The notes below the pieces were generated by a model. It saw nothing but the letters and a program-made list of their open reading frames with translations. It ran no database searches and had not been told where the DNA came from. From an uncultured Gammaproteobacteria bacterium (GTDB taxonomy: Bacteria; Patescibacteriota; Microgenomatia; Levybacterales; UBA12049): a stretch of DNA of 64,000 bases. Where the stretch lies: positions 12,011 to 76,010 of the forward strand of contig CAZWMJ010000003.1 of assembly GCA_964635045.1 (NCBI GenBank). Direction: 5' to 3'. Positions within the stretch are counted from its first letter, which is position 1. Each line of letters opens with the position of its first letter. Shown piece after piece: positions 18,621 to 57,482 of the stretch. The position numbers and the translations under genes are program-made.

Positions 18621-19895
18621 ATGAATTTTCATAGGACTGTCTTGCCAAATGGTCTTCGTTTAATTCTTATTCCGATGGAGTCGGTGAAAAGCGTCACCGC
18701 GCTGGTGATGGTGGGGGCGGGCAGCCGCTATGAAACCAGAGACAACAACGGAGTCTCTCATTTTCTGGAACACATGGCCTTCAAAGGCACCAAAAAAAGG
18801 CCCTCCGCAATTTTAATTTCCAGTCTGATTGACGGCATCGGCGGAGAATTTAACGCTTTTACTTCCAAAGAAACCACCGGTTACTATATCAAATCATCAT
18901 CAAACCATATCAATTTACTGCTGGATGTGCTTTCCGACATGCTGAGAAATTCGCTTTTTGACGCCAAAGAGATTGACAAAGAGCGGGGAGTAATCCTCGA
19001 AGAAATAAATCTTTACGAGGATACGCCGGTCCGCAAAATCGGCGATGTCTATGAACAGCTTCTGTACGGGGACACGCCGATGGGGTGGGATGTGGCAGGC
19101 CAAAAAGAAATTATCAAAAAAATAGACCGTCAAAATTTCATTTCTTACATGGAAAGTTTGTACAGCCCGCACAATATGACAGTGGTGGTGGCCGGAGGGT
19201 TTAAATCGTCGGCAGTAACAGAACTGGTCCAAAAATATTTTGGGCAGATGGCGCGTTTCAAAACTAAGCCGGCTGAAAAGGTTATTGAAAAGCAAATAAA
19301 ACCCAGCCTTTTCATCAAACAAAAAAATACCGAACAGGCGCATCTGGCTTTGGGCGTTCGCACTTTTCCGGTACACGACAGCCGCCGCTACATACTGTCT
19401 GTTTTGGCCACCATTTTGGGTGGGGGAATGAGCAGTAGGCTCTTTCATGAAGTGCGGGAAAAACGCGGCCTTGCCTATTATGTCCGCTCCAGCAATGAAC
19501 ATTATGATGATTGCGGAAGTTTGGTTTCCACCTCCGGCGTTGATCCAAAGCGCATCGAAGAAGCGATAACCGTGATACTTGATCAGTATCACAGAATTTC
19601 CAATTTCCAATTTCCAATTTCCAATGAGGAGTTAGCAAAGGCCAAAGAATACATGAAAGGGCATCTTATTTTGGAGTTGGAAGACAGCCGGGCGGTGGCC
19701 GGTTTTTACGGCTCGCAGGAGATATTGGAGAGGAAAATAGAGACGCCGGATGAGGCGATTGCCAAAATTAAAGCGGTGACTGTGGAAGAGCTGGAAGCAG
19801 TGGCCAAAGAGATTTTTAGGCCGGAAAGATTAAACCTGGCCGTGATCGGCCAATTTGACTCTGGACAAAGATTTGAAAAACTGCTACAAATGTAA
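18621..19895 (+). CDS. M16-family (insulinase-like) zinc peptidase
   Basis: Inverted zinc motif HFLEHMAFKGT (HxxEH). 424 aa. Contains the (TTCCAAT)n tract at 19596-19626. Confidence 0.8.
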   Translation: MNFHRTVLPNGLRLILIPMESVKSVTALVMVGAGSRYETRDNNGVSHFLEHMAFKGTKKRPSAILISSLIDGIGGEFNAFTSKETTGYYIKSSSNHINLLLDVLSDMLRNSLFDAKEIDKERGVILEEINLYEDTPVRKIGDVYEQLLYGDTPMGWDVAGQKEIIKKIDRQNFISYMESLYSPHNMTVVVAGGFKSSAVTELVQKYFGQMARFKTKPAEKVIEKQIKPSLFIKQKNTEQAHLALGVRTFPVHDSRRYILSVLATILGGGMSSRLFHEVREKRGLAYYVRSSNEHYDDCGSLVSTSGVDPKRIEEAITVILDQYHRISNFQFPISNEELAKAKEYMKGHLILELEDSRAVAGFYGSQEILERKIETPDEAIAKIKAVTVEELEAVAKEIFRPERLNLAVIGQFDSGQRFEKLLQM

Positions 19896-19975
19896 ATAGG
19901 ACTTAAGGAATAAAGGATTAAAGCGATAAGTATTTATTATTTATCACTTAAATCTTTTAATCTTAAATTCTTAAT

Positions 19976-20440
19976 ATGGAGCATTCTGTTGTACTAGTTA
20001 AGCCCGATGGTGTGCAAAGAGGTTTGGTGGGGGAGATTATTCACCGCTTTGAACAAAAAGGATTAAAGCTGGTTGGCTTGAAGATGACTGTCCTTGATGA
20101 TTCGCTGCTTGATAAATGGTACGCTCATCACAAAGACAAGTCCTTTTTTGGAAAGCTTAAAACCTACATGAAGTCGTATCCGGTGGTGGCCATGCTGTGG
20201 GAAGGGGTGGAGGCGGTGGCAGTTATTCGCCAGATGACGGGAGTAACTTTGGGCCGTCAGGCCGCGCCCGACACCATTCGGGGCGATTTGTCCATGAGCC
20301 AGCAATTTAATCTTGTTCATGCCTCGGAAAGTAGGGACACTGCCCAAAAAGAAGAGAACCTGCTGTTTAGTCCAACGGAGATTTTTAAGTGGGAAAAACT
20401 GGACCGCAGTCAAATCTATACCGAAGAAGAACTGGGATAA
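19976..20440 (+). CDS. ndk: Nucleoside diphosphate kinase
   Basis: MEHSVVLVKPDGVQRGLVGEIIHRFEQKGLKLVGLKM; active-site region NLVHASES. Confidence 0.9.
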   Translation: MEHSVVLVKPDGVQRGLVGEIIHRFEQKGLKLVGLKMTVLDDSLLDKWYAHHKDKSFFGKLKTYMKSYPVVAMLWEGVEAVAVIRQMTGVTLGRQAAPDTIRGDLSMSQQFNLVHASESRDTAQKEENLLFSPTEIFKWEKLDRSQIYTEEELG

Positions 20441-20445
20441 GATGT

Positions 20446-21930
20446 TCACGCAGCGGGAAATGGTAAACCGAGCCTTCGACGAGCAATATATTGGGCTGCT
20501 AAATCTAAGGGATCAACAGGAATTTTTCCTCTGTAGTCTTTTAACCCTTTCCATATTTGGGAAATTTCTGTAAGTGCAAAAACAACATAGGTAGATTCAA
20601 GTTTTTCTTCTTTTAGTAATTGACCTTTTTTGTCGTGTTCTCTATGGACGTGGAAAAGGATATCACGAAGATAGGTAAGCGCTCTTTCTGGGGGAGCCCC
20701 TGTTTTAACAGCATGTGCAAGCGCTACTACTTTTTCCAAAGCCCAGGGATTCAACATCTCAACTGCGATGCCCGCTTTACGAAGTTCTTCTAGGTATGGG
20801 CCATGTTCATCTTGTGCGACTTCAGGGATACCAATTAAGGCTACTTGGTTTACTCCCATAGTTTTAAGATATCTTGCAGTTACTTCCGGTAAAGTCACTA
20901 CTTCCGTCTTCGACCCCTCCAACAAGTCTCGAATAGCGGGTGTAAATACAGGCGTTGTATTACACGCAAGAGTTATTACATCAGGATCATGTTTCATCAT
21001 TTCTAAAATCTCTCTTGAAAGGCCTGCCCAAACTAAAGGACTGCGAACACGATTTTCGATAGAATATCCCATTTCGGGGATAGAGATAGTTTCTATGCGA
21101 GGCATATAGATATCTCGTGCTGGAACACCCATTTCTCTAAGTAACTGTCGAGTATGAAAGTTAATAAGTGTTTTGAATAGATCGCCGGATTCAGGTGGAT
21201 TGCCAGTCACAATGTTTATTTTTCCACGTAAGTGCGATCTTTCTAAAGTGTTCTCCGTTTCTTTTGCAATATCTGATATTTGGGTATCGACTATACTAGA
21301 AAATAGTTGCTGAGGATTAAATTCAACCCCCCACGTATATCCTCCTGCATTAGTTGTAACTGTAAAAGGCTCAACAGTTAGGGGTGATAAGACATCTGGG
21401 TCAACAATATGAATAAAAGGAGTTTTTATCATATGTCTTTCACCGTTTCTTCCACGGACAAGTTTAGCATTTGACAAAGGATGTACTAGTCCGCGACCTA
21501 CGCCTAATTGATCTAGGGTTTCGTTACTAGCAAACATTATAGGGTTATTTAGACCTAAAACTTTGTTTAGTTTTTCAAAATCAACTTCTTCATCGCCCCG
21601 AACATGAGTCATGATTAGAATAGGTTTTCCAGCCCGATCAAATGATTGCCATAAACCTGTTTTTAATTCTTGGGCAAGGAGCACACCTCTCTCTCCATAC
21701 TGAAATCTATTATGTGCTGCCTCAGCGCAGCCTTCTGAATGAGGATTTCGGCTTAATAAGAACCAGATGTTAGCCCCAGTCAAAACATTAATTGTATTTC
21801 TGACCTCGTAGGGGACATATCTTTCTCCCTTTGAGCGATCGAGTAAGGTCTTAGCCGCATCCAATTGCCACTCACGGTAAGACCTTGGATCACCAAGACC
21901 TAATGAAAATTCAACCCCACCTCGTTGCAT
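20446..21930 (-). CDS. Asp/Glu/hydantoin-racemase-family domain (C-terminal) fused to an unidentified ~230-aa N-terminal domain
   Basis: C-terminal half carries IVTGNPPESG..., LACNTTPVF (ACNTAH-like) and IGIPEVAQDE blocks. N-terminal half is unassigned. 494 aa is about twice normal racemase length. Confidence 0.35.
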   Translation of the reverse strand: MQRGGVEFSLGLGDPRSYREWQLDAAKTLLDRSKGERYVPYEVRNTINVLTGANIWFLLSRNPHSEGCAEAAHNRFQYGERGVLLAQELKTGLWQSFDRAGKPILIMTHVRGDEEVDFEKLNKVLGLNNPIMFASNETLDQLGVGRGLVHPLSNAKLVRGRNGERHMIKTPFIHIVDPDVLSPLTVEPFTVTTNAGGYTWGVEFNPQQLFSSIVDTQISDIAKETENTLERSHLRGKINIVTGNPPESGDLFKTLINFHTRQLLREMGVPARDIYMPRIETISIPEMGYSIENRVRSPLVWAGLSREILEMMKHDPDVITLACNTTPVFTPAIRDLLEGSKTEVVTLPEVTARYLKTMGVNQVALIGIPEVAQDEHGPYLEELRKAGIAVEMLNPWALEKVVALAHAVKTGAPPERALTYLRDILFHVHREHDKKGQLLKEEKLESTYVVFALTEISQIWKGLKDYRGKIPVDPLDLAAQYIARRRLGLPFPAA

Positions 21931-21984
21931 AGTGCACCCTCCTACTATAGGATAGGAAAGTATTTAACCATACCAGTTGTTTTT

Positions 21985-22030
21985 TGTAAAATTTATGCTA
22001 TAATATTACAAACATTACAATTTGTAATAA
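21985..22030 (+). promoter_or_regulatory. Candidate promoter plus palindromic operator upstream of the 22043 gene
   Basis: TATAAT at 21989-21994, followed by perfect inverted repeat attacaa-t-ttgtaat (22012-22026) flanked by additional TTACA repeats. Confidence 0.35.
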
Positions 22031-22042
22031 ATATTACATATT

Positions 22043-22687
22043 ATGGTTACTGTGGCCAAGGCTGTTTCGGAAATTATTAAGACAGACGAATTGGGTTTAG
22101 AAGCCTTTCGTGCAGGAATATTAAATTTGAGCGCCTACGCAGAGAAGATTCAAAAACGGGTTGAGGCCATTACTTTTAAACAGGTAAAAAAGGGGACAAT
22201 TACCGTGGCGCTATCTAGAACCACTAAAGGTTTACCTACGGTTCCTTTACACTCCCAGCTTATAGTTAGTAATATTGCTGTTAAGTCTTCTTTATCGGCG
22301 CTCACGTTTGATAAAACACCCGAGGTTTATAGAAAAATATCTATTTTAAATCCTTTTATTTTACTTTTGCACGATTTATTCGCTGTGGTGGAGGGCCCGT
22401 CTGAAGTAACAATAGTCTATTCCGAAAGATCAAACGAAACCATTTTAAACCACTTTGCCACCAAACCCAAAGCGGAATATGATAATTTAGCTGCTATTAC
22501 GGTGCAAATACCCAAGAAATTAGCAGATACCCCAAACGTTGTTTATAGCTTCCTAAGCGTTCTTGCGGTAAAAAGAATTCATGTGATCCAGATAGTGACA
22601 ACATTTGCAGAGACTTCCTTCATTATTAAAAAAGAAGATATGGAAGAATCGTTGAAATCTTTAAATACCTTTTATGAAAAATCCTAA
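22043..22687 (+). CDS. Uncharacterised ~215-aa protein, paralog of the 11117..11767 product
   Basis: See the 11117..11767 entry. 14-nt overlap with the downstream asparaginase-like gene indicates co-transcription. Confidence 0.45.
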   Translation: MVTVAKAVSEIIKTDELGLEAFRAGILNLSAYAEKIQKRVEAITFKQVKKGTITVALSRTTKGLPTVPLHSQLIVSNIAVKSSLSALTFDKTPEVYRKISILNPFILLLHDLFAVVEGPSEVTIVYSERSNETILNHFATKPKAEYDNLAAITVQIPKKLADTPNVVYSFLSVLAVKRIHVIQIVTTFAETSFIIKKEDMEESLKSLNTFYEKS

Positions 22688-23198
22688 TTCTATTCATTTT
22701 ATTATGACCGGAGGAACTATTGATTTTATATGGGATAGTAGGCAGGATAGTATGATCGTAAACAAACAATCAAGAGTTCCAGATTTTTTTGCAAAATATT
22801 ATCTGGACAAAAATATGATGTTTACGCAAGTCTGTATGAAAGATTCGCGCGCATTAACAACGGACGACTTAAAAGCAATAAAAAAAACGGTTGAGGAAAG
22901 TCCTTGCACTAAAATAGTAATTACTCATGGAACATATACCATGCCTGACACTGCTCAGTTTTTGACAAAAGGATTAAAAAGGACTGACCAAACGATTGTT
23001 TTAACCGGTTCTTCAACACCGCTGATTGGGTTTGAACTGTCAGAGGCCGTTTTTAACTTGGGTTTTGCAGTGGCAAAGGTGCAAGATTTACCCAACGGAG
23101 TCTATGTATCTATATTAGGTCGGACATTAACTTCACAAGAGATGGATAGAAGCATAAAGGCGGGAAAGTTTTTTGAAATTTTTGGTATTAATGGATAA
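22674..23198 (+). CDS. L-asparaginase-family N-terminal domain protein (short, 174 aa)
   Basis: HFIMTGGTIDF (TGGTIA block) and ITHGTYTMPDTAQFL (HGTDTM block) of asparaginase/GatD N-domain. The C-terminal domain is absent. Confidence 0.5.
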   Translation: MKNPNSIHFIMTGGTIDFIWDSRQDSMIVNKQSRVPDFFAKYYLDKNMMFTQVCMKDSRALTTDDLKAIKKTVEESPCTKIVITHGTYTMPDTAQFLTKGLKRTDQTIVLTGSSTPLIGFELSEAVFNLGFAVAKVQDLPNGVYVSILGRTLTSQEMDRSIKAGKFFEIFGING

Positions 23199-23981
23199 TT
23201 AAACTTGATTTTGAAGTACAAATTTATAGAGAAGAATTGCAAACAAGACCGTTATTAGATAAGAAATTATCACTCCTAAAAAAATTCCATACAAAGGTAC
23301 AAAAAAATAAAAAGCTACTGCAAAAAGAATAGTTCCTATAGTCCCATGAGGGATTGTGCGAGCGGTTGATGCTGTATAGTTAATGCCGTGGGTTTTTGAC
23401 AGTAATATGAGTGAAGAAAAAATACCAGCCGGAAAACTTCCCATTAAACCACCCCAAAGTGGTCCTAACAATTTAGCTAATAAAACAGCAGTTGCTATAA
23501 CTCCTCCTGAAAATAATACTCGAAAAAGGAAATTTTGTAGCGTTGATTTAAAAGCAGTAGGTTTTCTGTGGGGATAGCTATTAAGAAAAAGAATTGTAAT
23601 GAGAGTAATAATAGCGGCAAGAAGCAGTGATATCCAGATATTCTTTAAATTTATTAGAAGTAGTGGGAGGGTAAAAATAAACCAAACAAGCGCCCCGCCC
23701 CCAGATGCTAAAATTCGACCATATTTGTAGAAACGAATGAACGCTATGATGAAAAAAGAGTTTAGCGCCACGGCTACAGGTACAATTGGGATGGCGGCAA
23801 CAGCTTCTTTGGAGCTTTGGGTCCAGGCAAGAAAAATAAGAGTGAGAAGGATGGTAGAGGGAAGACCAATAAAGAGTCCGCCAATTTTTGATCCGTATCT
23901 TTCTGATAGCCAAATTGTTGTCGCAATATAGGTGCCACCAAAAAGAAAAGACAGTAATAATTTAATCGCGAATAGGTCCAT
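23199..23981 (-). CDS. Polytopic membrane protein of unknown function
   Basis: 260 aa with about 8 TM helices and no motifs. Stop abuts the asparaginase-like gene stop. Confidence 0.4.
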   Translation of the reverse strand: MDLFAIKLLLSFLFGGTYIATTIWLSERYGSKIGGLFIGLPSTILLTLIFLAWTQSSKEAVAAIPIVPVAVALNSFFIIAFIRFYKYGRILASGGGALVWFIFTLPLLLINLKNIWISLLLAAIITLITILFLNSYPHRKPTAFKSTLQNFLFRVLFSGGVIATAVLLAKLLGPLWGGLMGSFPAGIFSSLILLSKTHGINYTASTARTIPHGTIGTILFAVAFYFFVPLYGIFLGVIISYLITVLFAILLYKFVLQNQV

Positions 23982-24117
23982 AAATAGTATTATAACACTT
24001 TTTATCTTCCCGCATTCTCACACAAATTCAATAATTAATCGCCACCCCTCTTTTTAGTAGGGAGTTTCAGTCAAAAAATGGATGCCAAACTTGATAGACT
24101 TCAAAATATTCTTGATG

Positions 24118-24165
24118 GATTTGTTGGGCGGGGTAACTGGATTCGAACCAGTGACCTCTCGGTCC
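24118..24165 (-). pseudogene. tRNA 3'-half remnant (anticodon-loop to CCA; Pro-like)
   Basis: Sense strand GGGACCGAGAGGTC-ACTGG-TTCGAAT-CCAGT-TACCCCGCC-CA. The anticodon-stem 3' strand and variable loop are identical to the adjacent tRNA-Pro, but there is no 5' half. Confidence 0.45.
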
Positions 24166-24182
24166 CGCCCGCCTAAATTCTG

Positions 24183-24254
24183 TCGGGGATGACAGATTTG
24201 AACTGTCGACCTCTCGGTCCCGAACCGAGCGCGCTACCGCTGCGCCAATCCCCG
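24183..24254 (-). tRNA. tRNA-Pro (anticodon CGG)
   Basis: Manually folded: acceptor CGGGGAT/ATCCCCG; D-arm GCGC-AGCGGTA-GCGC; anticodon stem CTCGG/CCGAG with loop TTCGGGA; T-arm GACAG-TTCAAAT-CTGTC. Confidence 0.8.
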
Positions 24255-24428
24255 AATTTTTGGCGGGCTACCGACCCGCTTCGCCCAAGCTTCAGCGAGG
24301 CGAGTGAACTAGTCTCCGCAGCTTTTTTCATTGTATTTTATTGTATCTTCAAATGCAAATTATTACATGATGGATAGAGCAGTCCCGTTCTAGTTAACAA
24401 ATGAGGTTTTATATAGTACTTTAGAATA

Positions 24429-25091
24429 ATGAGTAAAATAAGGTTAACACAGATAAAAATTCAGAAAATTAAAAAATTGAGAAGTCAGGGATGCAGTTTG
24501 CCTGAAATTAGCAATGAATTACATATTCCGAAGACAACGGTATTTAGATATGTTCAAGACGTCGAGATTTTGCCGGAGTTTTTAAGAGACTGGTCGATTA
24601 AGCGGGGAGGAAGCAGAAAAAGAAAGTTGCTAAAAGAAACAAAAGCATATGAAGAAGGCAAAAAGCTGGTTGGAAAATTGTCTGATAAGGAGAAAGCACT
24701 ATTTTTATCAGCTCTTTACTGGGCAGAAGGCAGTAAAGGAGATTTTGGATTATCTAATACAGATGGGATGCTTATTAAGATATTTGTAACAGGATTGCGA
24801 GAAGTATTTCATGTTACAGATGAGAGGTTAAGAATAAGCGTGCGTTTATATGAGGATTTAGATAAGGAAAAAAGCTTGTCTTTTTGGTCGCAAATTGTTA
24901 ATATACCAAAGGAAAGGTTCGTGGGAGTTAACATTCTTGCTGGAAAGAAAAAAGGAAAGCTTGAGCATGGAATGTGTAGAGTTAGAGTGTTAAAAGGAGG
25001 AGACCTGCTTAAAAAGGTAAATGGAATCAATAAGGCTGTTATTGAAGCGTTTGTCCCTATAGCTCAATTGGATAGAGCACCCCGGTCCTAA
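24429..25091 (+). CDS. HTH-domain protein with LAGLIDADG-like motif (possible homing-endonuclease-like protein)
   Basis: N-terminal HTH (LRSQGCSLPEISNELHIPKTTVFRYV); central LSALYWAEGSKGDFGL resembles a single LAGLIDADG block. The 3' end overlaps tRNA-Arg by 39 nt. Confidence 0.3.
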   Translation: MSKIRLTQIKIQKIKKLRSQGCSLPEISNELHIPKTTVFRYVQDVEILPEFLRDWSIKRGGSRKRKLLKETKAYEEGKKLVGKLSDKEKALFLSALYWAEGSKGDFGLSNTDGMLIKIFVTGLREVFHVTDERLRISVRLYEDLDKEKSLSFWSQIVNIPKERFVGVNILAGKKKGKLEHGMCRVRVLKGGDLLKKVNGINKAVIEAFVPIAQLDRAPRS

Positions 25092-25126
25092 CGGGGAGAT
25101 TCCCAGTTCGAGTCTGGGTAGGGATA
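25053..25126 (+). tRNA. tRNA-Arg (anticodon CCT)
   Basis: Acceptor GTCCCTA/TAGGGAT (G1-U72); D-arm GCTC-AATTGGATA-GAGC; anticodon stem CCCCG/CGGGG with loop GTCCTAA; T-arm CCCAG-TTCGAGT-CTGGG. Confidence 0.75.
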
Positions 25127-25128
25127 CA

Positions 25129-35927: not shown

Positions 35928-36473
35928 TTAACTGATGGCTGAAGGCTGATTACTAGATGCTTTCTTATTTTCAATTATCTTTAGCGTCATCACAAATTTC
36001 TGTAGATTCCAACTCAATGCTCTGTGCAAGCTATAAATGGGCGCTTTCAATCCGCCCACCAACTGAGCAAGCAAGACCTCGCGGGCGGGGAGAGCGGATA
36101 ATTTTAGCAGTTGATCAGCCGTTAGCGCTTGACCCTCCACAATGCCAAATTTAATAACAGGCAGTTTGAGAGTTTTTATTGTCTTGGCAAGCGCTTTTAG
36201 GGGAGCGATAATGTCATTGTAGGCGAACAATGTTGCCGTCGGCCCGTCTAGCGAACTTCCAATTTCCAATTTCCAATTTCCAATTTCCAATGCGCGTTTA
36301 AGTAGAGTATTCTTCGTTACAACGATCTCGGCATCAACAGCCTTGACCATCTTTTTAAGCTCCTCGAGCTGTTTATGAGTCAGGCCCTGATAATCGGCAA
36401 AAACCAAACTTTTGGCGCGGCCGACCTTATCTTTAAGTTTAGCAACAATATCAATTTTCTTCTGACTAGCCAT
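35928..36473 (-). CDS. rplJ: Ribosomal protein L10
   Basis: L10 fold residues upstream of rplL. Contains the in-frame (TTCCAAT)n insertion encoding EIGNWKLEIG (36256-36292). Confidence 0.85.
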   Translation of the reverse strand: MASQKKIDIVAKLKDKVGRAKSLVFADYQGLTHKQLEELKKMVKAVDAEIVVTKNTLLKRALEIGNWKLEIGSSLDGPTATLFAYNDIIAPLKALAKTIKTLKLPVIKFGIVEGQALTADQLLKLSALPAREVLLAQLVGGLKAPIYSLHRALSWNLQKFVMTLKIIENKKASSNQPSAIS

Positions 36474-36479: not shown

Positions 36480-36640
36480 AAATTAAAAGTTAAAAGTTCA
36501 AAGTTAAAAATTAAAAAAAACACTCCGAAGAGTGCGCAAAACTTGCTTCTCCTCGGTAGGCTTTATTCCTTTTGGGATCCTACTGTCTCAGGTTTGTCAC
36601 GTTTGACGTGATTTATTAAAGTTTACCACAGAGGGGAGAG
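36480..36640 (-). promoter_or_regulatory. rplJ upstream leader region with heptamer repeats and a CACGTTTGACGTG hairpin
   Basis: aattaaaagttaaaagttcaaagttaaaaattaaaaaaaa tract, then gtcacgtttgacgtgat (36597-36611). Location corresponds to the L10 autoregulatory leader in other bacteria; its structure is not verified here. Confidence 0.3.
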
Positions 36641-50069: not shown

Positions 50070-50140
50070 GACAGAATCCCCGCCTGCCAAAGCTTCCGCC
50101 GCTAACTGCGTAAGCTGTAGGCGGATGCGGGCAGGGAACT
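50070..50140. other. Structured GC-rich spacer between tRNA-Tyr and tRNA-Thr
   Basis: Nested hairpins ccccgcctgcc...ttccgcc-[loop]-ggcgga...gcgggcagg. The same CCCGCCTGC / GCGGGCAGG pair recurs at 50325-50373. Confidence 0.25.
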
Positions 50141-50177
50141 GTCGTCATATGTTTATCCCAGAAAATTCAGCCGACTC

Positions 50178-50251
50178 TGGAGCCGACTGTCAGACTTGAA
50201 CTGACGACCTGCTGTTTACAAAACAGCTGCTCTACCACTGAGCTAAGTCGG
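50178..50251 (-). tRNA. tRNA-Thr (anticodon TGT), CCA encoded
   Basis: Acceptor GCCGACT/AGTCGGC; D-arm TAGCTCAGTGGTAGAGC; anticodon stem GCTGT/ACAGC with loop TTTGTAA; T-arm GTCAG-TTCAAGT-CTGAC; 3' TCCA. Confidence 0.85.
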
Positions 50252-50680
50252 CTAGAATTTACGGGATCCCGTAAATCTAAGCCAATTTTATCAAAATTGG
50301 CAAGATTTTACTGGGGCAAAACAGCTGCCCCGCCTGCAATTGCCTTCGGCAAAAAGCCGATGGCGGGCAGGCTGGAACATTTTCATTTTACCAAACAATA
50401 TACTGGGGGACAAGTCCTTGCTCAGGAAGTAAAAAAAGAAGAATAAGTTCATCTTTGGTACAGAGTGCGACTTGGATTTTCCCCAAAACAGACAATTAGG
50501 AAGACTCATCTGCTGACCAAGGCCAACAAATATGCGTCTTGTCATCCGCCATCACTTTTAAGATGTTGGCGGACTACCTCATTAGCGCTGAATTTGTGGA
50601 GGAAAATACTCCAAACTTACTCTTATACCAAAGAACAATAATAGCATATAAGAAATAAAGGCGGATGTCAAGATTTTGGT

Positions 50681-51307
50681 TTAAAATCCCAGCAGTTTCA
50701 TGGCAAAACTGACTATGTCGAAAATAACTCCGCCTAAGCTCACCCCGCCGATTGGAAATAGCAGTAGAAAGAATAGTATAAACATGCCCATTGAACCAAA
50801 CGATAGATAAACTGCCGCTTCGCGCTCCGGCAGGAGAAAGGCGAATATTTTGGAGCCGTCAAGAGGAGGAATGGGAGTAAGATTGAGAACGGCCAGAAGT
50901 AAGTTGTATTTGACAGTCAAAAAAAGAAACCAACCAATAAATGAGGGAAAGACCATGGGGATAGTAGAGAGGGTCTTAAAAATAATTGCCGCGATAGTAG
51001 CAATGAGTATGTTAGTTAGAGGTCCGGCAAGAGCGACAAGGGCTACATCTTTTTTCCCCTCTTTCAGATTAAATGGATCAACCGGAACCGGCTTGGCGGC
51101 GCCAAAAATAATGGGGGAGCCGGAAAGAAGGAGAAGGAGGGGAAGAGCGATACTCATCATAGGGTCAATATGGGATTTGGGATTAAGCGTTAATCTTCCC
51201 ATCAGTCTGGCAGTTGGATCGCCTAGGCGGTCTGCCACAAATCCATGAGCTACTTCATGGAGAATGGCGGAGAAGATTAAAATTACTAAACCCAAAATAA
51301 GCTCCAT
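50681..51307 (-). CDS. Site-2-protease-family (M50) intramembrane metalloprotease
   Basis: HEVAHG (HExxH) in TM1, multiple TM helices, second zinc-ligand region. Confidence 0.7.
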   Translation of the reverse strand: MELILGLVILIFSAILHEVAHGFVADRLGDPTARLMGRLTLNPKSHIDPMMSIALPLLLLLSGSPIIFGAAKPVPVDPFNLKEGKKDVALVALAGPLTNILIATIAAIIFKTLSTIPMVFPSFIGWFLFLTVKYNLLLAVLNLTPIPPLDGSKIFAFLLPEREAAVYLSFGSMGMFILFFLLLFPIGGVSLGGVIFDIVSFAMKLLGF

Positions 51308-51478
51308 ATTGTTTACTCTATAGTTCTATGATATCATATATAATACAGAATTTTTGAAGTGAGATATGAGATTTTTTTGATTCAGAATTCTTGAAATTTT
51401 GATTTTTTGGATTCAAGATTTAAAATATTCAAACTCAAGGATATCAAAAAGATCCCACGTCAAGAAATCCAAACGAAT

Positions 51479-51736
51479 ATGGCAATGAAGTGTTTTAATT
51501 GCGGCAAGGGGGTCATGTTTGGTCGTCAGCATACGCATCATCCTGGGGTGGCGGGAGGACGATGGAAAAAAAGAGCTCCTAAAACACCGAAAATTTTCAA
51601 GCCTAATTTACATTATGCTCGTATTAAAGTTGAAGGAGGGATGAAAAGAGTCAGACTTTGCACAAAGTGCCTTAGGAGAGAGAAGAATAAACAAATTACC
51701 AATAAACCAATAAACAAATCAATGCAAAATATCTAA
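51479..51736 (+). CDS. rpmB: Ribosomal protein L28
   Basis: MAMKCFNCGK...KIFKPNLHYARIKVEGGMKRVRLCTKCLR matches the L28 pattern (C-x2-C ... PNL ... RV-x-C-x2-C). Start moved to the internal ATG at 51479. Confidence 0.6.
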   Translation: MAMKCFNCGKGVMFGRQHTHHPGVAGGRWKKRAPKTPKIFKPNLHYARIKVEGGMKRVRLCTKCLRREKNKQITNKPINKSMQNI

Positions 51737-52470
51737 ACGATTGGTAGTATTACCTTTTCAAGGTCGGGGTATCCGTTTATAAAATCTTTAACGCTCATCG
51801 GTTTTCCGCCTTCCACCTGAAGTTTTTGATGAGGCAGAAACTTAATAATCCGATTGTTGATTGTTGATTGTTGATTGTTTGAAGTTGTGATTTGGACTTT
51901 GGTCCAAACGCTGGGCCAGGGGTAATAAGCCCTGATCATTCGATCAAGAATTTCTGGCGGTGGGGGATTATTAATGTCGAAATACCCATCTTGACGGGTC
52001 AAACTTTTAGTAAAGGTGGTCCGGGAATGGTTTTGAGGCGTTAGTTTAATTTTTCCAGCAGCAAAATCCTGAATAATTTTAGGCAGAATTTCACCAGCTC
52101 GCTGAAACATTTTTTTACTCAAAGTATCAAAATTATCACTGTCAGAAAGTACTATTTCTTCTTGCCATATTATTGGTCCATGATCTACTTCCTCGTCCAT
52201 TTTAATAATGGTGATGCCGGATCTTTTGTCGCCGTTTAAGATGGCAGTTTGAATGGGCGAGGCGCCGCGGTATTTAGGTAAAAGCGATGGGTGGACATTG
52301 ATAAATCCATATTTTGGGGCATTAAGTTCTTGTTTTGTTAAAATCCTGCCATATGAAGCAACAACTCCCAGATCGGCTTCGTTTAATGAGTCAACTAGTA
52401 CAAAATGTTTTACCAGCTGGTTTTTGATGGGTTGGACAAATAATGGAGTTCCCAAAAAAACTATTTTCAT
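51733..52470 (-). CDS. fmt: Methionyl-tRNA formyltransferase
   Basis: MKIVFLGTP...FINVHPSLLPKYRGASPIQTAILNGD. Contains the in-frame (GATTGTT)4 tract at 51849-51885. Confidence 0.8.
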   Translation of the reverse strand: MKIVFLGTPLFVQPIKNQLVKHFVLVDSLNEADLGVVASYGRILTKQELNAPKYGFINVHPSLLPKYRGASPIQTAILNGDKRSGITIIKMDEEVDHGPIIWQEEIVLSDSDNFDTLSKKMFQRAGEILPKIIQDFAAGKIKLTPQNHSRTTFTKSLTRQDGYFDINNPPPPEILDRMIRAYYPWPSVWTKVQITTSNNQQSTINNRIIKFLPHQKLQVEGGKPMSVKDFINGYPDLEKVILPIV

Positions 52471-53024
52471 AACTCAATTTCTTCGAACACGTCATTGCCT
52501 TTTTTGTCTTTTTTGCTTTTGAACAGCTTTTCTTTTTGTTCCAGCACTCGTTGGGTAAAGAGAATGCCGTTGAGATGGTCTGTTTCATGCTGGATAATGG
52601 TGGCCAGAAAACCCGTGAACACACGGGTTTTAGTTGAAAGTTGAGAGTTGAAAGTTGAGAGTTGCTGATAGCGAACCTTAATTTCTTTTGCCCGATGGAC
52701 CATGCCCCAGACATTGTGGATAGAAAGACATCCTTCCAGTTTTTTCGAGCGTCTGGGAACGCCTTTTGTTTTTTCCAAAGAAACCTCAAGTATTTGCGGG
52801 TTTAGAAAAACAGAAATGGGGGATTTCAGATATGGTTTGGCAAGGAAAATTCGAAACGGACTGCCAACCTGTGGCGCCGCCAGGCCGACTCCGATTGGGT
52901 CTTTGGTTGCCAGCAAGGTTTTTTTCATTCCCTCAATTAATTCCAGAGTTTTTTTATCAATAGCTTGAACCGTCTTTGCCGGAGTAGTTAAAACCGGATT
53001 AGGCACCTTAACAATCTGCAACAT
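52467..53024 (-). CDS. def: Peptide deformylase
   Basis: GVGLAAPQVG, EGCLS, HETDHLNGILF motifs. In-frame (GTTGARA)4 tract at 52621-52660. Confidence 0.85.
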   Translation of the reverse strand: MLQIVKVPNPVLTTPAKTVQAIDKKTLELIEGMKKTLLATKDPIGVGLAAPQVGSPFRIFLAKPYLKSPISVFLNPQILEVSLEKTKGVPRRSKKLEGCLSIHNVWGMVHRAKEIKVRYQQLSTFNSQLSTKTRVFTGFLATIIQHETDHLNGILFTQRVLEQKEKLFKSKKDKKGNDVFEEIEL

Positions 53025-53210
53025 TGCCTTACATTATATCATAGAATAATTTTTATTAAAGGTCGTCATGATGTTATTATGGACGTTATTAAGGCTAGAT
53101 TTAACACCAAAAAAAGCTGCAGCTTGATTTTGTGTTAATTTTATTGTAGTGTGCATATTGTATAGTGCAATAGCGTATTTGACATTTATTAATATAATAT
53201 AGGATGTACG

Positions 53211-53834
53211 ATGGAAACAGTAGAATGGAATAAAGCATACAAAATTTTTTATAGCGATAAAGAAGCAATTCTTGCCGACCTTAAGAGAGAAGTTAACAGA
53301 TATCCTTATCTTAAGGAAATTCTTGTTATCTTAGCCGCGGGGACGCTTATTTCTGCAGCGCTTGTTATGCCGGATATTGCAAAACTTATTAACCCCAGAA
53401 TTTGGCGGGGAGAAGGTTATCGGAAAGATAGGTTGCGACAGACGCTGAAACGATTACAAAAGAAAAAACTGATAGAGGTGGTGGAGACGAAAGATGGACA
53501 GGTAGTTAAGATTACGGAAAATGGTCTAACTCGCGCCATGAAATATAAACTTGATGAGATGAAGATTAAAGAACAAAAATCATGGGATAGGAAGTGGAGG
53601 ATTGTAATTTTTGATATACCGGATGATAAAAAGAGAGTTCGTGACGAGTTTAGGGAGCGGTTAAAACAATTGGGATTTTTTCGATTGCAGGAGAGCGTTT
53701 TTGTGCATGCCTTTCCCTGTTTTGACGAGGTAGAGTTCTTGCGGCAGATTTATGAGGTTAATATCAACGTTACTTACATTCTTGCAATAACAATAGAAGG
53801 GCAAGAGGGTCTTCAAGATTTTTTCAAACTTTAA
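53211..53834 (+). CDS. PaaX-like protein: membrane/wHTH N-terminal part plus Cas2-fold C-terminal domain
   Basis: C-terminal WRIVIFDIPDDKKRVRDEFRERLKQLGFFRLQESVFV follows the Cas2/PaaX_C pattern (vvvYDv..kRR.kv.k.L..yG.rvQ.SVF). N-terminus has a hydrophobic helix and a winged-helix-like segment. No cas1 or CRISPR array nearby. Confidence 0.45.
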   Translation: METVEWNKAYKIFYSDKEAILADLKREVNRYPYLKEILVILAAGTLISAALVMPDIAKLINPRIWRGEGYRKDRLRQTLKRLQKKKLIEVVETKDGQVVKITENGLTRAMKYKLDEMKIKEQKSWDRKWRIVIFDIPDDKKRVRDEFRERLKQLGFFRLQESVFVHAFPCFDEVEFLRQIYEVNINVTYILAITIEGQEGLQDFFKL

Positions 53835-53870
53835 AGAGTTTGATTTAAAGATTTTAATTTGTCTTAAATT

Positions 53871-53982
53871 TTAGCTTCAGGTTCAACACCAATTTCAGCT
53901 GCAGCATAAATTGGTGTTGGTTTGATATTCAAATTCCGCGTAAAATCCACACCTAAAATCCAGCGGTTGGGGAAAATGGGTT
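53871..53982 (+). repeat. 112-bp direct repeat, copy 1
   Basis: 109/112 identical to 54476-54587. Contains perfect 11-bp inverted repeat aacaccaattt-cagctgcagcat-aaattggtgtt. Confidence 0.8.
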
Positions 53983-54039
53983 GGTTTTTGTTCAATTGAC
54001 TCTGCAGTAATAATTTGCTTAAATAGAATTTAGCTTAAT

Positions 54040-54450
54040 ATGGAAAGCCAGTCTGAAGCAAGGCCGAGAATTCCAGTTTCTCCTTCGGAACAAAGGCTTT
54101 TGGATCGTTTCATTCACGTTGGAGTTGCAATATTTATGGCAGGAATAGTTACAGCTAAATCTGGATTTGAAGATGAAGCCAAGTATGAAAAGCTTAACGG
54201 CGCTATCGTGGTCATGCAAACAGAACGTTCATTAGGAGAGGGAAGTCATCATGAAACAGAAGGGCCTGGGCTAGAGAAGTTGATAGAGAGACGCGATCAG
54301 TTGAGTAAGTTTGCGGATAAAAAAGCACTTTTTAGCAGTGCACTTTTTGTCTTAGGTTCTATGTTTGCTGGACTTGGAGATCGTCAGAGGAGAGGGCTTT
54401 CGATGGTGCACCCTGGAGTAGAAGAGGAATTAACGAAGAAGAGAGATTAA
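54040..54450 (+). CDS. Hypothetical protein with 2 TM helices, flanked by the 112-bp direct repeats
   Basis: 136-aa ORF. No motifs. Confidence 0.35.
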   Translation: MESQSEARPRIPVSPSEQRLLDRFIHVGVAIFMAGIVTAKSGFEDEAKYEKLNGAIVVMQTERSLGEGSHHETEGPGLEKLIERRDQLSKFADKKALFSSALFVLGSMFAGLGDRQRRGLSMVHPGVEEELTKKRD

Positions 54451-54475
54451 AAGAATTTTTTAAAGTTGAGTATAT

Positions 54476-54587
54476 TTAGCTTCAGATTCAACACCAATTT
54501 CAGCTGCAGCATAAATTGGTGTTGGTTTAATATCCAAATTCCGCGTAAAATCCACACCTAAAATCCAGCGGTTGGGGAAAATGGGTT
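54476..54587 (+). repeat. 112-bp direct repeat, copy 2
   Basis: See copy 1. Confidence 0.8.
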
Positions 54588-54594
54588 AAAATTA

Positions 54595-55071
54595 TTAGAG
54601 AGGATTTTGGAGGGGTTTGGGGAGATTTTTGAAATATTTTTTGACCACGGATTTTAGGCTCCAGAATTTTTCAGCGTCGAAAATTATCAGAGTAAGAAAA
54701 ACCAGACTAAAAATCACGTGCTGGTCAACCAGAAAAGAAGCCGTTCCTTTGCCAACATAAGGGAAATGCAGAATAGGGAGGTAATAAAGAACCATCATTA
54801 TTATGCCGCCAACCGCGGCGGGACGAATAAAAACCCCCAAAATCAGAGCCGCCCCAATTAATGTTTGTCCCCAGGAATTAGACAGATTAATCCAACCGAT
54901 GTTATTTGCATTGGCAAACCAGTCATAAAGAAAGGGTAATGTTTGAGAGCTTTTAAGATACCCGGCGGCGCTCCAGTTGGGATCTAAAATTTTGGTCACG
55001 CCGGAATACAAGAAAATCCATCCCAGAGAGAGCCGGAGAGCCAGCAAAATTATTTTTTGCCCTTTATTCAT
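54595..55071 (-). CDS. DoxX-family membrane protein
   Basis: LRLSLGWIFLYSGVTKILDP is the DoxX signature. 4 TM helices. Confidence 0.6.
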   Translation of the reverse strand: MNKGQKIILLALRLSLGWIFLYSGVTKILDPNWSAAGYLKSSQTLPFLYDWFANANNIGWINLSNSWGQTLIGAALILGVFIRPAAVGGIIMMVLYYLPILHFPYVGKGTASFLVDQHVIFSLVFLTLIIFDAEKFWSLKSVVKKYFKNLPKPLQNPL

Positions 55072-55148
55072 ATTCCGTCCTTCATCATTTATACTTCATC
55101 CCCCGCCTGCATCGCTTTGCGAAGCATTGCGGGCAGGTTAATCCTTAG

Positions 55149-57482
55149 TCAATATCCTCTCCAGTCAAGTAATTTCTGTTTGGCTTGGGCGTCATCGGTG
55201 GCGATGTTGGTTAATATATATTGCAAAGACTCGATCGCTTTTTGCTCAAGCTCAGGCTTGACGACATTTTTTGCTTTATCCAAAGACAAATCATGGTAGA
55301 AAAGCCCAAGGGCATAGTAGGCGTCGCGGTAGTCAGGTTTGAGTTTGACTGTTTTTTCAAGAGCAGATATGGCGTCCCTGCCTTTGCCGTTTTGACCATA
55401 CAGCAATCCCAGATTGTAGAAAATTTTGGCATCGGTGGGAGCCAGCAGGCTGGCTTTTTTTACCGCCTCAAGATCCTCGGCCAGATATTTCGGGTCGGTT
55501 TGAGATAGAGCATAAAACATACGGACGCGGGTTTTCCAAAAGACAACATTGTTGGGGTGTTTCAATACAATATCGTCGCTTAAAGCAATTGCCTGCTCTT
55601 TTAATAATAATGCTTGTTGTCCGGCTTGGCTGGCAATAGTGGGATCTGTTTGATTGGCAAGCGCCGCTGCCAAAATGGCGCTATTTATAGAAAACTCATC
55701 GGCAAAGGTCGGTTCATCGCCTCGTACTTGCACGGCCTCCTGCAGTTTGGGATAGGCCTCCTGATACTGCCCAGATCGATCCAGATTGTAGCCCAAAGCG
55801 AAGGCTTTATCGGCCAGCCAGAAACGAAGCAAAGTAAATTGTAAATAAAAAATAACAAATAAAAGTATGACGATTGCCAGCCATTGATAACTTTTTATCT
55901 CTTCTTTTGGAGATACAGGAGGGTTTTGGGGTTTGATTTGCTCGTTCAGGACAAAGGCGAAGGCGGGGATGAGGAAGAAATAGAGATTGATGATGACCAC
56001 CGAGAAGCCGAAGAAGTTGGAAACTAAAATGGAGAGGTAAGCGCTCAAAAGCGCAATTTCCAATTTCCAATTTCCAATTTCCAATGATTTAGATTTGAGA
56101 TTTTTAAAGATTAGCCAAAGGAATGACCCAATCATTATAAGGTAACTTCCCAAACCAAAAATTCCAGTAGTTGCCAGATAATTTAGGTATTCGTTGTGGG
56201 CTTTGTTGTAGAGAAAATCCCATTCGCTGGTTAGATTATGATTGGTCGGGCGATACTGATAATAGGCAAAGGCGAATGTTTCAACTCCCGATCCAAAAAG
56301 GGGGTTATGGCGGGCGATATCAAGCGCTCCCTGCCAGACAAATCTGCGAATATCTCCCGACTCCGTCCCGCCGGTTTCAAGGGCAGGACCCTGTGGTTTA
56401 ACTTCTAACTGCTTACTACTAACAGCTGACTTTTTGAGACCGGAAAGAGTCCATTTATTCAATTGTTCAAAAGGAGAACCGACCACAAAAGTAATACTAC
56501 CAATAAATATAAATAAAAGTATTAAGTATTTAGTATTTAGTATTTTGTATTTGTTAATCAAACGCGTTTGCCAAATGTAGATTGCAATAAAGAAGGCTAG
56601 TCCTACCCAAAGACCCAAGAAGCCTGAGCGGGAGTTGGTGAAGAGAAAAGCGAGGTAGAATAATATAACAAGTAACACGTAACAAGTAACACGTAACAAT
56701 TTTTTTCGCGTCACGTTTTTCGTGTCACTCGCCACATTGATAACAAAAGCTATGGCAATAGGTATTAAAATAGACAAATACGCTGCCAGCCAGTTGGGCT
56801 GGCCAAGGGTGGAGAAGATGCGCACGCGCGGCTGAAAAGCCTCGGTCCAGCAGGAAACATCCAAATTTCCCCGCAGCATCAAACAAGTTGGATCATAGCC
56901 AAAATGAGAAGGCAGTCCCCAGAGAGTCACGATGAGACCGGAGATAAGACTAACAAAGAGTAATCGTTTAACCATTACTATCGCTCGGGGTTCTGCCGCT
57001 CGCTCGTCCAAAGGTGCTCCTTCTAGTGAGCCACTACTCAACGAAGATGCGCCCCTTTGGACGCCTCCGCTCGCGTCACCCCTAGCTCGATGCCATCCCT
57101 CATTAACCACAAAATTACTTAAAAAAGCGTAGTATAAAAATATATAGGAGATGATGGAAAGCAAGCCTCCGTTAAATCTTGAATAAAATCCCCAAATGGA
57201 AGTATGGGTGTCCAGAGAATGAAAAGTTGCGATAATTTGAGAAATCAGGAAAAGAATAATTGGGATATCAAGCGGTGTTCTTTGAATTGAGATTCTTCTC
57301 TGAGTAATCATTTTTACCAGCCAAGCTCCCGCAATCACCAAAGTCAGAGCAAAGGTCAGCCACATCTTGTTAAATTCAAAAAGCTCATAGGTATCCCCGG
57401 CCATGGTCAAAGGGATAAGTAAAAAGATCAGATAGAAGCAGTATTCGATGGCGCGGTTTACGATTTTGGTCAAAGTTTCCAT
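55149..57482 (-). CDS. O-antigen-ligase-like polytopic membrane protein with C-terminal TPR repeats and two in-frame repeat insertions
   Basis: Wzy_C-like loop (NSRSGFLGLWVGLAFF). C-terminal TPR (YNLGLLYGQNGKGRDAISALEKTVKLKPDYRDAYYALGLFY). Contains the (TTCCAAT)n tract at 56051-56092 and a diverged inverted RPE-like copy at ~56985-57110 encoding ...GASSLSSGSLEGAPLDERAAEP... Confidence 0.55.
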   Translation of the reverse strand: METLTKIVNRAIEYCFYLIFLLIPLTMAGDTYELFEFNKMWLTFALTLVIAGAWLVKMITQRRISIQRTPLDIPIILFLISQIIATFHSLDTHTSIWGFYSRFNGGLLSIISYIFLYYAFLSNFVVNEGWHRARGDASGGVQRGASSLSSGSLEGAPLDERAAEPRAIVMVKRLLFVSLISGLIVTLWGLPSHFGYDPTCLMLRGNLDVSCWTEAFQPRVRIFSTLGQPNWLAAYLSILIPIAIAFVINVASDTKNVTRKKLLRVTCYVLLVILFYLAFLFTNSRSGFLGLWVGLAFFIAIYIWQTRLINKYKILNTKYLILLFIFIGSITFVVGSPFEQLNKWTLSGLKKSAVSSKQLEVKPQGPALETGGTESGDIRRFVWQGALDIARHNPLFGSGVETFAFAYYQYRPTNHNLTSEWDFLYNKAHNEYLNYLATTGIFGLGSYLIMIGSFLWLIFKNLKSKSLEIGNWKLEIALLSAYLSILVSNFFGFSVVIINLYFFLIPAFAFVLNEQIKPQNPPVSPKEEIKSYQWLAIVILLFVIFYLQFTLLRFWLADKAFALGYNLDRSGQYQEAYPKLQEAVQVRGDEPTFADEFSINSAILAAALANQTDPTIASQAGQQALLLKEQAIALSDDIVLKHPNNVVFWKTRVRMFYALSQTDPKYLAEDLEAVKKASLLAPTDAKIFYNLGLLYGQNGKGRDAISALEKTVKLKPDYRDAYYALGLFYHDLSLDKAKNVVKPELEQKAIESLQYILTNIATDDAQAKQKLLDWRGY
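56985..57110 (-). repeat. Diverged RPE-like repeat element (copy F) inside a CDS
   Basis: The reverse complement gcgcatcttcgttgagtagtggctcactagaaggagcac aligns to the element core gcgcagttcgttgaagcttgcttcactagaacgagcac. It is a GC-rich island in an otherwise AT-rich gene. Confidence 0.5.

Follow-up and report, generated by a model that had tools for sequence, protein, structure and literature searches.

Introduction

Heptanucleotide simple-sequence repeats are an already known phenomenon. Their over-representation in prokaryotes was pointed out by Mrazek in 2007, with slippage over a polymerase footprint of about 7 nt as the proposed cause, and in surveys of long simple sequence repeats (LSSRs), as far as later papers summarise them, in-gene repeats have unit lengths that are multiples of three (via PMC4679880, PMC4692102). 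In Xanthomonas and Nostoc, the heptamers GGGAATC and GGGGAYT are over-represented in intergenic regions (Rehm 2015, PMC4692102). TAACTGA repeats of Beggiatoaceae, cyanobacteria and Bacteroidetes come in 2-6 copies per set; horizontal spread is suspected and no mechanism was found (MacGregor 2015, PMC4679880). Here we describe heptanucleotide arrays, among them three tracts of the unit TTCCAAT, in 64 kb of contig CAZWMJ010000003.1 (positions 12,011 to 76,010; 41% G+C) from a bacterium of the Candidate Phyla Radiation (CPR; GTDB order Levybacterales). This whole stretch is called the window, and its L10, ArgRS and M16 proteins assign it to Candidatus Levybacteria (Microgenomates); L-numbers below denote loci, and P-numbers proteins, of other genomes.

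A related family, the cyanobacterial short tandemly repeated repetitive (STRR) sequences, was reportedly described by Mazel in 1990 and Elhai in 2008: heptamers such as CCCCAGT, said to be mainly intergenic, with small hairpin-forming elements embedded in them in Nostoc. The arrays of the window resemble STRRs in being tandem heptamers scattered over the genome, and one of them likewise holds a 30-nt element. They differ in their units and, if STRRs are indeed mainly intergenic, in their location. We know of no report of STRRs overwriting loops of essential proteins.

Among the longer tandem repeats of the window, period 7 is dominant, a point of agreement with the LSSR surveys (Mrazek, Guo and Shah 2007). 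Unlike what is summarised from those surveys, which appear to hold no CPR genomes, the arrays lie nearly all in housekeeping coding sequence, have a sharp length mode of 31-34 nt and often adjoin a hairpin. Like GGGAATC and GGGGAYT arrays, they are kept at the same sites between related species while varying in length and sequence, and inverted pairs occur; the latter, however, are G-rich, quadruplex-type and intergenic, whereas ours are AT-rich, unstructured and coding (PMC4692102). With TAACTGA they share the recurrence of a single heptamer unit in distant phyla. TAACTGA repeats, in contrast, lie mostly just upstream of start codons, with rare cases in open reading frames (ORFs) at protein edges, and their forward unit has stops in all frames (PMC4679880).

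In the literature searched, nothing relevant was found on heptanucleotide repeats in CPR/Patescibacteria. Features unreported there are the near-exclusive location in housekeeping genes in CPR, the overwriting of loops without length change, the sharp 31-nt form with its fixed 5' phase, the polar adjacency to locus-specific perfect hairpins and the recurrence of one unit across phyla. The explanation that we favour, and to which we give an even chance, is that the arrays are self-renewing microsatellites, made in place by slippage or template switching near hairpins and filtered by reading frame.

Results

Three identical tracts belong to a family of period-7 arrays

The first-pass annotation of the window had seen an identical (TTCCAAT)x5 tract in an M16 peptidase gene, in rplJ and in a Wzy-TPR gene. 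The tract is indeed the same in three unrelated genes. The 31-mer ATTTCCAATTTCCAATTTCCAATTTCCAATG has exactly three exact copies in the window, at 19596, 36262 and 56056, all on the + strand, and the 14-mer TTCCAATTTCCAAT gives 10 overlapping matches against 0.02 expected from shuffles. The gene calls are confirmed by Pfam (Peptidase_M16/M16_C, Ribosomal_L10 and Wzy_C plus TPR; Table 1). According to Tandem Repeats Finder and a self-shift scan, the copy number is 4.4 in the M16 gene, 5.0 in rplJ and 4.6 in the Wzy gene, so that five full units are found in rplJ only. The corresponding peptides of M16, L10 and Wzy are RISNFQFPISNEE, LEIGNWKLEIGSS and SLEIGNWKLEIALL.

What had been overlooked is that these tracts are three of 16 period-7 arrays in the window, where no array of period 5, 6, 8 or 9 reaches an equal score. 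As in LSSRs and STRRs, 7-nt units are repeated head to tail beyond chance and period 7 is enriched over neighbouring periods. Unlike the predominantly intergenic heptamers of Xanthomonas, Nostoc and Beggiatoaceae, 15 of the 16 arrays lie within ORFs. The hosts include ArgRS (four arrays), MreB, Def, Fmt, L10, M16, a GATase-like ORF and Wzy genes. Other units also recur: AAATACT and TAACAAG twice each, and CAAAACT/CAAAAGT three times.

Distribution in other genomes

When one genome of each GTDB species was scanned for exact (TTCCAAT)x4, at least 119 loci (831 kb) were returned; counts for these loci, here and below, are among the matches listed. All come from metagenome-assembled genomes, mostly of CPR of many classes, and 23 have at least 50% G+C (Nitrospirae, Verrucomicrobia, Planctomycetes, Acidobacteria, Chloroflexi). 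They contain 262 period-7 arrays; of the periods 4 to 11, each of the others has 1-13. The tract is canonically (AATTTCC)4AAT: 70% of 123 arrays begin at AAT and 44% end exactly with AAT. Of the TTCCAAT arrays, 41 have the modal length of 31 nt, and lengths of 32, 33 and 34 nt come next in frequency. Arrays of other units also peak at 31-34 nt, with a sharper peak in coding sequence (27 of 84) than in the rest (17 of 83). Such a mode fits one seed unit plus three in-frame units. No target motif was found among 127 listed flanks. CAATGAYMAA, suspected at first to be a longer conserved element on the right-hand side of arrays, was rejected; it follows about 8-10 arrays and also stands in unrelated contexts, and looks like a CAAT-NNN unit variant.

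In four GC-rich loci (L114, L055, L067 and L063), inverted TTCCAAT-type pairs flank intergenic spacers of about 6-100 nt and would form long AT-rich hairpins. Locus L020 has a degenerate array of more than 100 nt beside an apparent start codon on the opposite strand.

Arrays at orthologous sites

At two of the three TTCCAAT sites there is no net insertion. The L10 tract aligns with B. subtilis uL10 (RAVEQAELN-GLNDFLTGPNA) with a 1-residue gap; between the M16 tract and structure 3hdi the gap is 2 residues. Of 120 M16 orthologues from Levybacteria, nearly all are equally long at the array site. The third site, in Wzy, is a loop between conserved hydrophobic segments that varies by about 70 residues among homologues, several of which carry other heptamer-type peptides there.

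The M16 site was compared in six lineages, including the window. Each has a hairpin, 2 nt and then a 31-nt array. The unit is AATTTCC in the window, AATTTCC with one change in L125, AATTTCW in L126, AATTCGA in L120, AGTTAGA in L124 and AATTCAN in L123. Among the 120 M16 orthologues, the peptides at the site are either 7-residue periodic, with many different units (ISNFKFPISN, IRNSKSEIRN, VQSSKFKVQS, VKSQKSKVKS, ISNLKSQISN) or non-periodic (FREEKADIAK). In L123, the closest relative (89% amino-acid identity), the array has extended by one unit into the EEL codons, changing them to SEL without an indel. At the rplJ site, lineages other than the window and L121, which both have (ATTGGAA)5, show (AATGGAA)3-4, AAATGGA and AGATGAA units mixed in a decayed array, (ATGGAAA)3 or (AAATTTC)4.6 in perfect form. 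Arrays with differing units at orthologous M16 and rplJ positions mean that the array sites are old and that the unit changes in concert, at M16 with a fixed length as well. Among the orthologues examined at the DNA level, the M16 and rplJ sites hold full arrays; no empty site and no single TTCCAAT seed was seen.

The first-pass annotation had given as its main proposal the insertion of a repeat-bearing mini-element. A tiny mobile element of this kind, comparable to a miniature inverted-repeat transposable element (MITE) or a Rickettsia palindromic element, would insert a 31-nt cassette in frame. A discrete 31-nt cassette with a sharp 5' end, found at no fewer than 119 loci in many phyla, is what it predicts; moreover, the arrays of ArgRS sites A, C and D and of MreB lie within true insertions, and a different 30-nt element did insert inside an array at ArgRS site C (see below). 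We nevertheless consider it very unlikely for the three tracts. Their flanks are unrelated, sharing only the tract and one following G. There is no target duplication, no terminal repeat, and no full-length consensus or defined terminus of the kind seen in MITEs, repetitive extragenic palindromes (REPs), their paired forms (REPINs) or Rickettsia palindromic elements. A 31-nt insert would disrupt the reading frame, while native residues are in fact replaced at two sites; and orthologues carry different units at equal coordinates. No associated transposase was found in the 64-kb window; Y1_Tnp genes occur at three array-bearing loci of other genomes (see below). Rickettsia palindromic elements are 100-150 bp dispersed copies of one consensus and true in-frame insertions in surface loops. 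The arrays are like them in being selfish-looking repeats tolerated in frame, and unlike them in having no consensus beyond the unit and in often not being insertions.

Insertions and unit-step change in argS

ArgRS sites A, C and D are insertion hot spots, and the arrays there are part of true insertions relative to orthologues. The MreB array also lies in an insert (Table 1), and Def is longer by 5 residues where its array lies. At ArgRS site C, the window and L120 share a 12-bp hairpin followed by (AACTTAG)n, and the window has an extra element inside the array. This GC-rich 30-nt element is CCCCACTTCGCTAAAGCTTCGCGGGGCAAG (17398-17427; peptide PHFAKASRGK). A longer relative, PHFAPLSGASRGKQ, is found at a different argS site (site D) in L120 and also in P0122. 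The element looks as if it belonged to a family of its own, made up of very small dispersed elements with arrays as their targets. In M16 orthologues P0267, P0268, P0292, P0293, P0347 and P0315, GC-type inserts (SPLAGQ, SASSGQ, PFGLAQGG, RQLADE, PKARLAKGG) stand in the middle of the heptamer-encoded peptide, which suggests that small elements land inside arrays. ArgRS orthologues P0145, P0150 and P0133 carry peptides such as HAELVSASKILENKILKQVQDD at the same insertion hot spot; by eye, these resemble a translated hairpin repeat that is frequent in hypothetical proteins of many bacteria.

Change by whole units was observed in argS of a related species, not at the TTCCAAT sites; the L10 sequence of the window had no exact match among contigs on record. 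In L126 (6344-6434), an ENA contig of the Levybacteria species carrying P0251, argS contains (CAAAATT)3 and is split into ORFs of 92 and 515 residues. Loss of one unit or gain of two was predicted to restore the frame, and JGI metagenomes were scanned with a flank-gap-flank pattern. The single match, L127 (355-473), has five CAAAATT units and argS in frame. Over 1,921 nt, the only difference between L126 and L127 is a 14-nt gap, that is, two units. Arrays therefore change by whole units, and out-of-frame alleles have been assembled from nature. Such a copy-number difference, as read from the two contigs, points to slippage.

The argS alleles thus show the hallmark of a contingency locus, a coding repeat with a unit that is not a multiple of three, whose copy number switches the frame. 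The neuO O-acetyltransferase gene of E. coli K1 carries such a heptanucleotide repeat in its coding sequence, and the protein is made only at an in-frame copy number. As in neuO, the 3- and 5-unit argS alleles switch the frame. However, neuO is a single surface-modification contingency locus, whereas dozens of arrays here lie in essential genes, where an off state should be lethal. Nor are the hosts the dispensable surface or host-interaction genes expected of contingency loci: besides Wzy genes, arrays occur in rplJ, argS, def, fmt and mreB. Given such essential hosts, the arrays are mechanically like phase-variable repeats and biologically not. NeuO is described as phase-variable (PMC13001214).

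Hairpins on the 5' side of the arrays

The window contains 18 perfect stems of 8 bp or more, where shuffles give 8.7. Five of them, among which are the three longest (10, 12 and 14 bp), sit no more than 5 nt from an array. The perfect hairpins next to arrays measure 8-14 bp, with folding z-scores of about -4 to -8 for the longest three; the arrays themselves are unstructured by folding. The association is polar. Among the matches listed from other genomes, 23% have a perfect stem of at least 6 bp that ends 0-2 nt 5' of the AATTTCC strand, compared with 2.7% of control positions. When 7 bp or more are required, the values are 13% and 0.9%, and the 3' side shows no excess (0.8% at this threshold).

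In the window, the hairpins are locus-specific. They have no common sequence and their arms are made from local codons, as at ArgRS site A, where the arms cover the conserved NIA and then AIF codons. In array-bearing ArgRS orthologues, the right arm covers positions that hold other residues in array-free orthologues. Of the array/hairpin modules, four are sense and three antisense to transcription. The M16 stem is 92% paired over six sequences with one GC-to-CG double change, in a covariation test that is underpowered. An Rfam scan of the window gave five tRNAs only and no family at arrays or hairpins.

A hairpin followed by a tract of about 31 nt could be a functional DNA or RNA signal for a trans-acting factor, such as an HUH/Y1 nuclease or a nucleoid or RNA-binding protein, selected apart from the encoded protein. 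Several observations would agree with this: position, length and hairpin are kept at the M16 site in six lineages, and one pair in the stem is compensatory; few nucleotides of rplJ are conserved as well as the arrays; the 5' boundary of the array has a fixed phase right after the stem; and AT-rich units occur, often as inverted pairs, in intergenic DNA of GC-rich genomes. In addition, a Y1_Tnp gene (PF01797), described as IS200-like or RAYT-like HUH, lies between argS and the M16 gene in L124 (8832-9494), with homologues in L064 (558-1181) and L007 (2046-2513). We still regard a cis-element as distinctly unlikely. The unit sequence varies between orthologues, arrays range from perfect to decayed, the orientation is mixed, the hairpins share no sequence and are missing at rplJ, and no Rfam family matches. 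No Y1_Tnp gene was found in the 64-kb window, where the Y1 transposase lead therefore finds no support.

Three other candidates were considered. An intrinsic terminator or ribosomal-frameshift signal was rejected, as the tract is neither U-rich nor slippery and has a mixed orientation to genes. CRISPR-spacer-like integration beside a palindrome, considered for the length of 31-33 nt, was rejected on the absence of net insertion at two sites and the periodic content; CRISPR repeats were not searched for. A diversity-generating retroelement target was set aside on anatomy alone, no search being aimed at a reverse transcriptase: the arrays are periodic and 31 nt long, and the variable repeats of such retroelements measure about 100 nt.

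Table 1 Period-7 arrays and adjoining hairpins of the window
Feature	Coordinates	Strand	Remarks
(CTTGTTT/CTTGTTA)n (92-126) and (AAAGTTC)3 (578-598)	92..598	+	Second Wzy_C ORF (57-815 +)
(CAAAACT)5 array	16243..16277	+	In GATase-like ORF (16109-16789 +)
(AATTCAA)n array with degenerate tail, ArgRS site A	16942..16991	+	8-bp hairpin at 16918-16937
(AAATACC/AAATACT)n array, ArgRS site B	17038..17063	+	Encodes LNTKYQIPNT
12-bp perfect hairpin (17351-17379), then directly (AACTTAG)n (17380-17397), ArgRS site C	17351..17397	+	z = -5.1
(AGAATTC)n array (18283-18309) abutting 14-bp perfect hairpin (18309-18339), ArgRS site D	18283..18339	- (module orientation)	z = -7.9
Perfect 8-bp hairpin GTGATACT-tgatc-AGTATCAC	19572..19592		Ends 2 nt before M16 array; z = -2.2; kept in orthologues with one GC-to-CG compensatory pair
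(AATTTCC)4AAT array	19595..19625	+	Sense strand of M16 gene (18621-19895 +); encodes ISNFQFPISN
(TTCCAAT)5 array	36257..36291	+	Antisense to rplJ (35928-36473 -); encodes LEIGNWKLEIG
Imperfect (TTAAAAG)n array	36483..36517	+	Non-coding, just upstream of rplJ; sole clearly intergenic array of the window
(GATTGTT)4 array	51852..51879	+	In fmt (51733-52470 -); 7-bp hairpin begins 11 nt downstream
10-bp hairpin (52608-52631), then (AGTTGAA/AGTTGAG)n (52632-52664)	52608..52664	+	In def (52467-53024 -); z = -4.4
Weak 5-bp hairpin GCGCT-caaa-AGCGC	56041..56054		Abuts Wzy array; z = -1.0, alone not significant
C(AATTTCC)4AAT array	56054..56085	+	Antisense to Wzy_C-TPR gene (55149-57482 -); encodes LEIGNWKLEIA; loop of highly variable length
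(AGTATTT)n (56517-56552) and (TAACAAG/TAACACG)n (56666-56698)	56517..56698	+	Both in Wzy_C-TPR gene
(TCAAAAG/TCAAAAC)n array	61999..62030	+	In mreB (61282-62472 +); within 34-residue insertion relative to Levybacteria MreB of L126

Other features of the window

The intergenic (TTAAAAG)n array occupies the position expected of a ribosomal-protein leader of rplJ, where no Rfam leader was detected. Three arrays in genes of Wzy-type membrane proteins (92-126, 56517-56552 and 56666-56698) have a T-rich sense strand and encode hydrophobic peptides (VTCYVLLVILF, KYLILLFIF). Arrays in genes of soluble proteins are A-rich and encode K/N/Q/S loops; array orientation appears to be matched to the local protein context. 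The Wzy_C-TPR gene also contains a GC-rich stretch of about 110 nt (56985-57095, -) encoding RARGDASGGVQRGASSLSSGSLEGAPLDERAAEPRA. It has nested inverted repeats, CGTCCAAAGG...CCTTTGGACG and TAGTG..CACTA, and resembles a palindromic insertion in an AT-rich gene.

Why one unit recurs in three genes

Under a null of base composition with no stop in any sense frame, the AATTTCC class has p = 0.002 and 0.0007 same-unit triples are expected among 15 arrays. When the null is restricted to units with at least 5 A/T, these values become 0.009 and 0.02. About 500 proteins of four families were surveyed for perfect peptides encoded by arrays, which gave 100 arrays with strongly skewed units: AAATCTC 14, AAAAGTC 9, AAAATTC 8, AAATTTC 7, AATTTCC 6 and AAAGTTC 6. 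At a unit frequency of 6%, three of 15 arrays share AATTTCC with P = 0.057. Among AT-rich classes, 39 have no stop on either strand; AATTTCC belongs to these and occurs in both orientations. Stop avoidance probably accounts for the TCAAA signature of coding-strand units, as a sense-strand T can regain an A run only via C; as the sole explanation of the unit vocabulary it was rejected, since it fails the AATTTCC frequency.

A further group of explanations comprises independent expansion of native seeds, chance and an assembly artefact. AAT-N4-AAT should be common in AT-rich DNA, and the probability just given for three of 15 leaves some room for chance. Even so, this group of explanations is highly improbable. 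The seed AATTTCCAAT does not occur outside arrays in the window, orthologues show full arrays, and the null of composition and stop avoidance lies far below what is observed. In this respect the first-pass annotation was right to deny independent slippage from native seeds. As to an artefact, arrays are present in assemblies from many projects and samples, in frame and at conserved orthologous sites.

The other half of its copy-paste proposal was templated repair. Arrays might be overwritten from other arrays, with no classical element involved, and one gene would supply the unit of another. The donor could lie in the same genome (ectopic gene conversion or templated repair) or in a related one, from which DNA is taken up and recombined homologously; 31 nt is near the minimum length usually quoted for RecA-dependent exchange. 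The identical 31-mer in three arrays, far beyond composition-based nulls, would be accounted for directly, as would the discordance between M16-site units and the gene tree. Around the hairpin and array of argS (17300-17560), the window and L120 have 93-100% nucleotide identity in a gene that is 76% identical overall, and ComEC-type competence genes lie near array loci in relatives. However, the three sites have no flank homology, and arrays within the L124 and L126 loci share no units. Further TTCCAAT arrays make up about 7% in loci chosen for one such array, among the matches listed, against a clade background of 6%; the lack of an excess argues against strong within-genome copying. The conserved argS block also encodes a highly conserved catalytic motif, and could be a recombination tract or reflect strong constraint on that motif. 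Overall, we regard copy-paste as unlikely; for templated repair or conversion between arrays there is neither proof nor disproof. In the favoured explanation, the unit shared by the three genes would reflect a strongly skewed vocabulary of AT-rich units, to which occasional conversion between arrays may add.

Discussion

In the favoured explanation, seeds of the form A-B-A with 7-nt spacing would expand by replication slippage to tracts A-B-A-B...-A, 31-34 nt long and about 4.4 units in number; for TTCCAAT, A is AAT and B is TTCC. Near-palindromes in adjoining codons would be corrected to perfect palindromes by same-strand template switching, and the resulting hairpin would stall synthesis and promote misalignment in the neighbouring tract. 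Slippage and short-range template switching in a 7-nt register would keep making arrays uniform again where they stand, preferentially beside sequences able to fold into hairpins. Selection would act as a filter only, removing variants that contain stops, are out of frame or harm the structure. Coding arrays would then be stop-free in all three sense frames, change length in 3-unit steps and lie in peptide-tolerant loops. The expected outcome in coding DNA is a seed plus three units, about 31 nt, at long-lived sites whose unit drifts in concert. The data themselves show the excess of period 7, the adjacency of hairpins, arrays at orthologous sites, no net insertion at two of the three sites and length polymorphism in unit steps; what we infer is the chemistry of slippage and template switching, that hairpins act as a cause, and why the number is 7.

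Both steps have precedents. Yeast lacking the flap endonuclease Rad27 accumulates ABA-to-ABABA insertions and near-palindrome corrections, attributed to template switching in Okazaki-fragment processing (PMC5677150), and template switching at near-palindromes is established in E. coli (PMC6357072). As in the flap-endonuclease mutants, the expansion of short direct repeats is paired here with perfected inverted repeats. Unlike the arrays, a fixed clade-wide natural feature, these are laboratory mutant spectra with no 7-nt preference.

A number of observations weigh against the slippage model. The identity of units exceeds what simple drift predicts: the window and L121 share CGCGC(ATTGGAA)5 exactly (35/35 nt) in rplJ genes that are 68% identical, and M16 hairpin and array are identical at 53 of 54 positions, loop included, between the window and L125, whose proteins are 71% identical, while closer relatives (89% and 83%) carry other units. 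No contracted M16 orthologue, 7 residues shorter, was seen among 120; turnover without length change would then need a conversion-like step. AATTTCC makes up about 6% of the clade census against 0.2-0.9% by stop-avoidance nulls. The mode of 31-32 nt is visible outside coding sequence too, for which frame constraint alone is insufficient. In genomes of 55-66% G+C, the tracts are intergenic AT-rich islands, often inverted pairs, and protein-level filtering therefore cannot explain the unit vocabulary. Together with the M16 discordance, these intergenic units indicate that protein filtering and vertical drift are not the whole story. No hairpin was found adjoining the rplJ array, and the covariation of the M16 hairpin, one pair in six sequences, is only suggestive. 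Finally, the 3- versus 5-unit difference in argS may have arisen in assembly. Slippage in place does not explain why units are identical across deep divergences, why the 31-nt mode appears outside genes too, or why several phyla have a vocabulary in common.

In the most novel explanation considered, the hairpin and its 31-nt tract would be the footprint of a dedicated DNA-rewriting enzyme of CPR and several other phyla, a hairpin-recognising nuclease, primase-polymerase or reverse-transcriptase-type protein. It would start at the 3' edge of a hairpin and write about 4.4 AAT-initiated heptamers over existing sequence, including loops of ribosomal proteins and tRNA synthetases. We judge it rather improbable. 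If it existed, the arrays would represent a new form of templated micro-editing or ultra-small mobile DNA and not passive slippage.

If slippage in place is the correct explanation, a CPR bacterium tolerates about one hypermutable, frame-breaking microsatellite per 4 kb within the genes that are most essential to it, and a mutation bias rewrites protein loops in reduced genomes while their length is unchanged. The favoured 7-nt slippage register in bacteria, a puzzle since 2007, would gain a natural system with a structural correlate, the hairpin directly 5' of the tract. Recurrent CPR peptides such as ISNFQFPISN and EIGNWKLEIG would be repeat products and not conserved motifs. Split genes such as argS of L126 may be microsatellite alleles and not pseudogenes, and the arrays could serve as strain markers in metagenomes.

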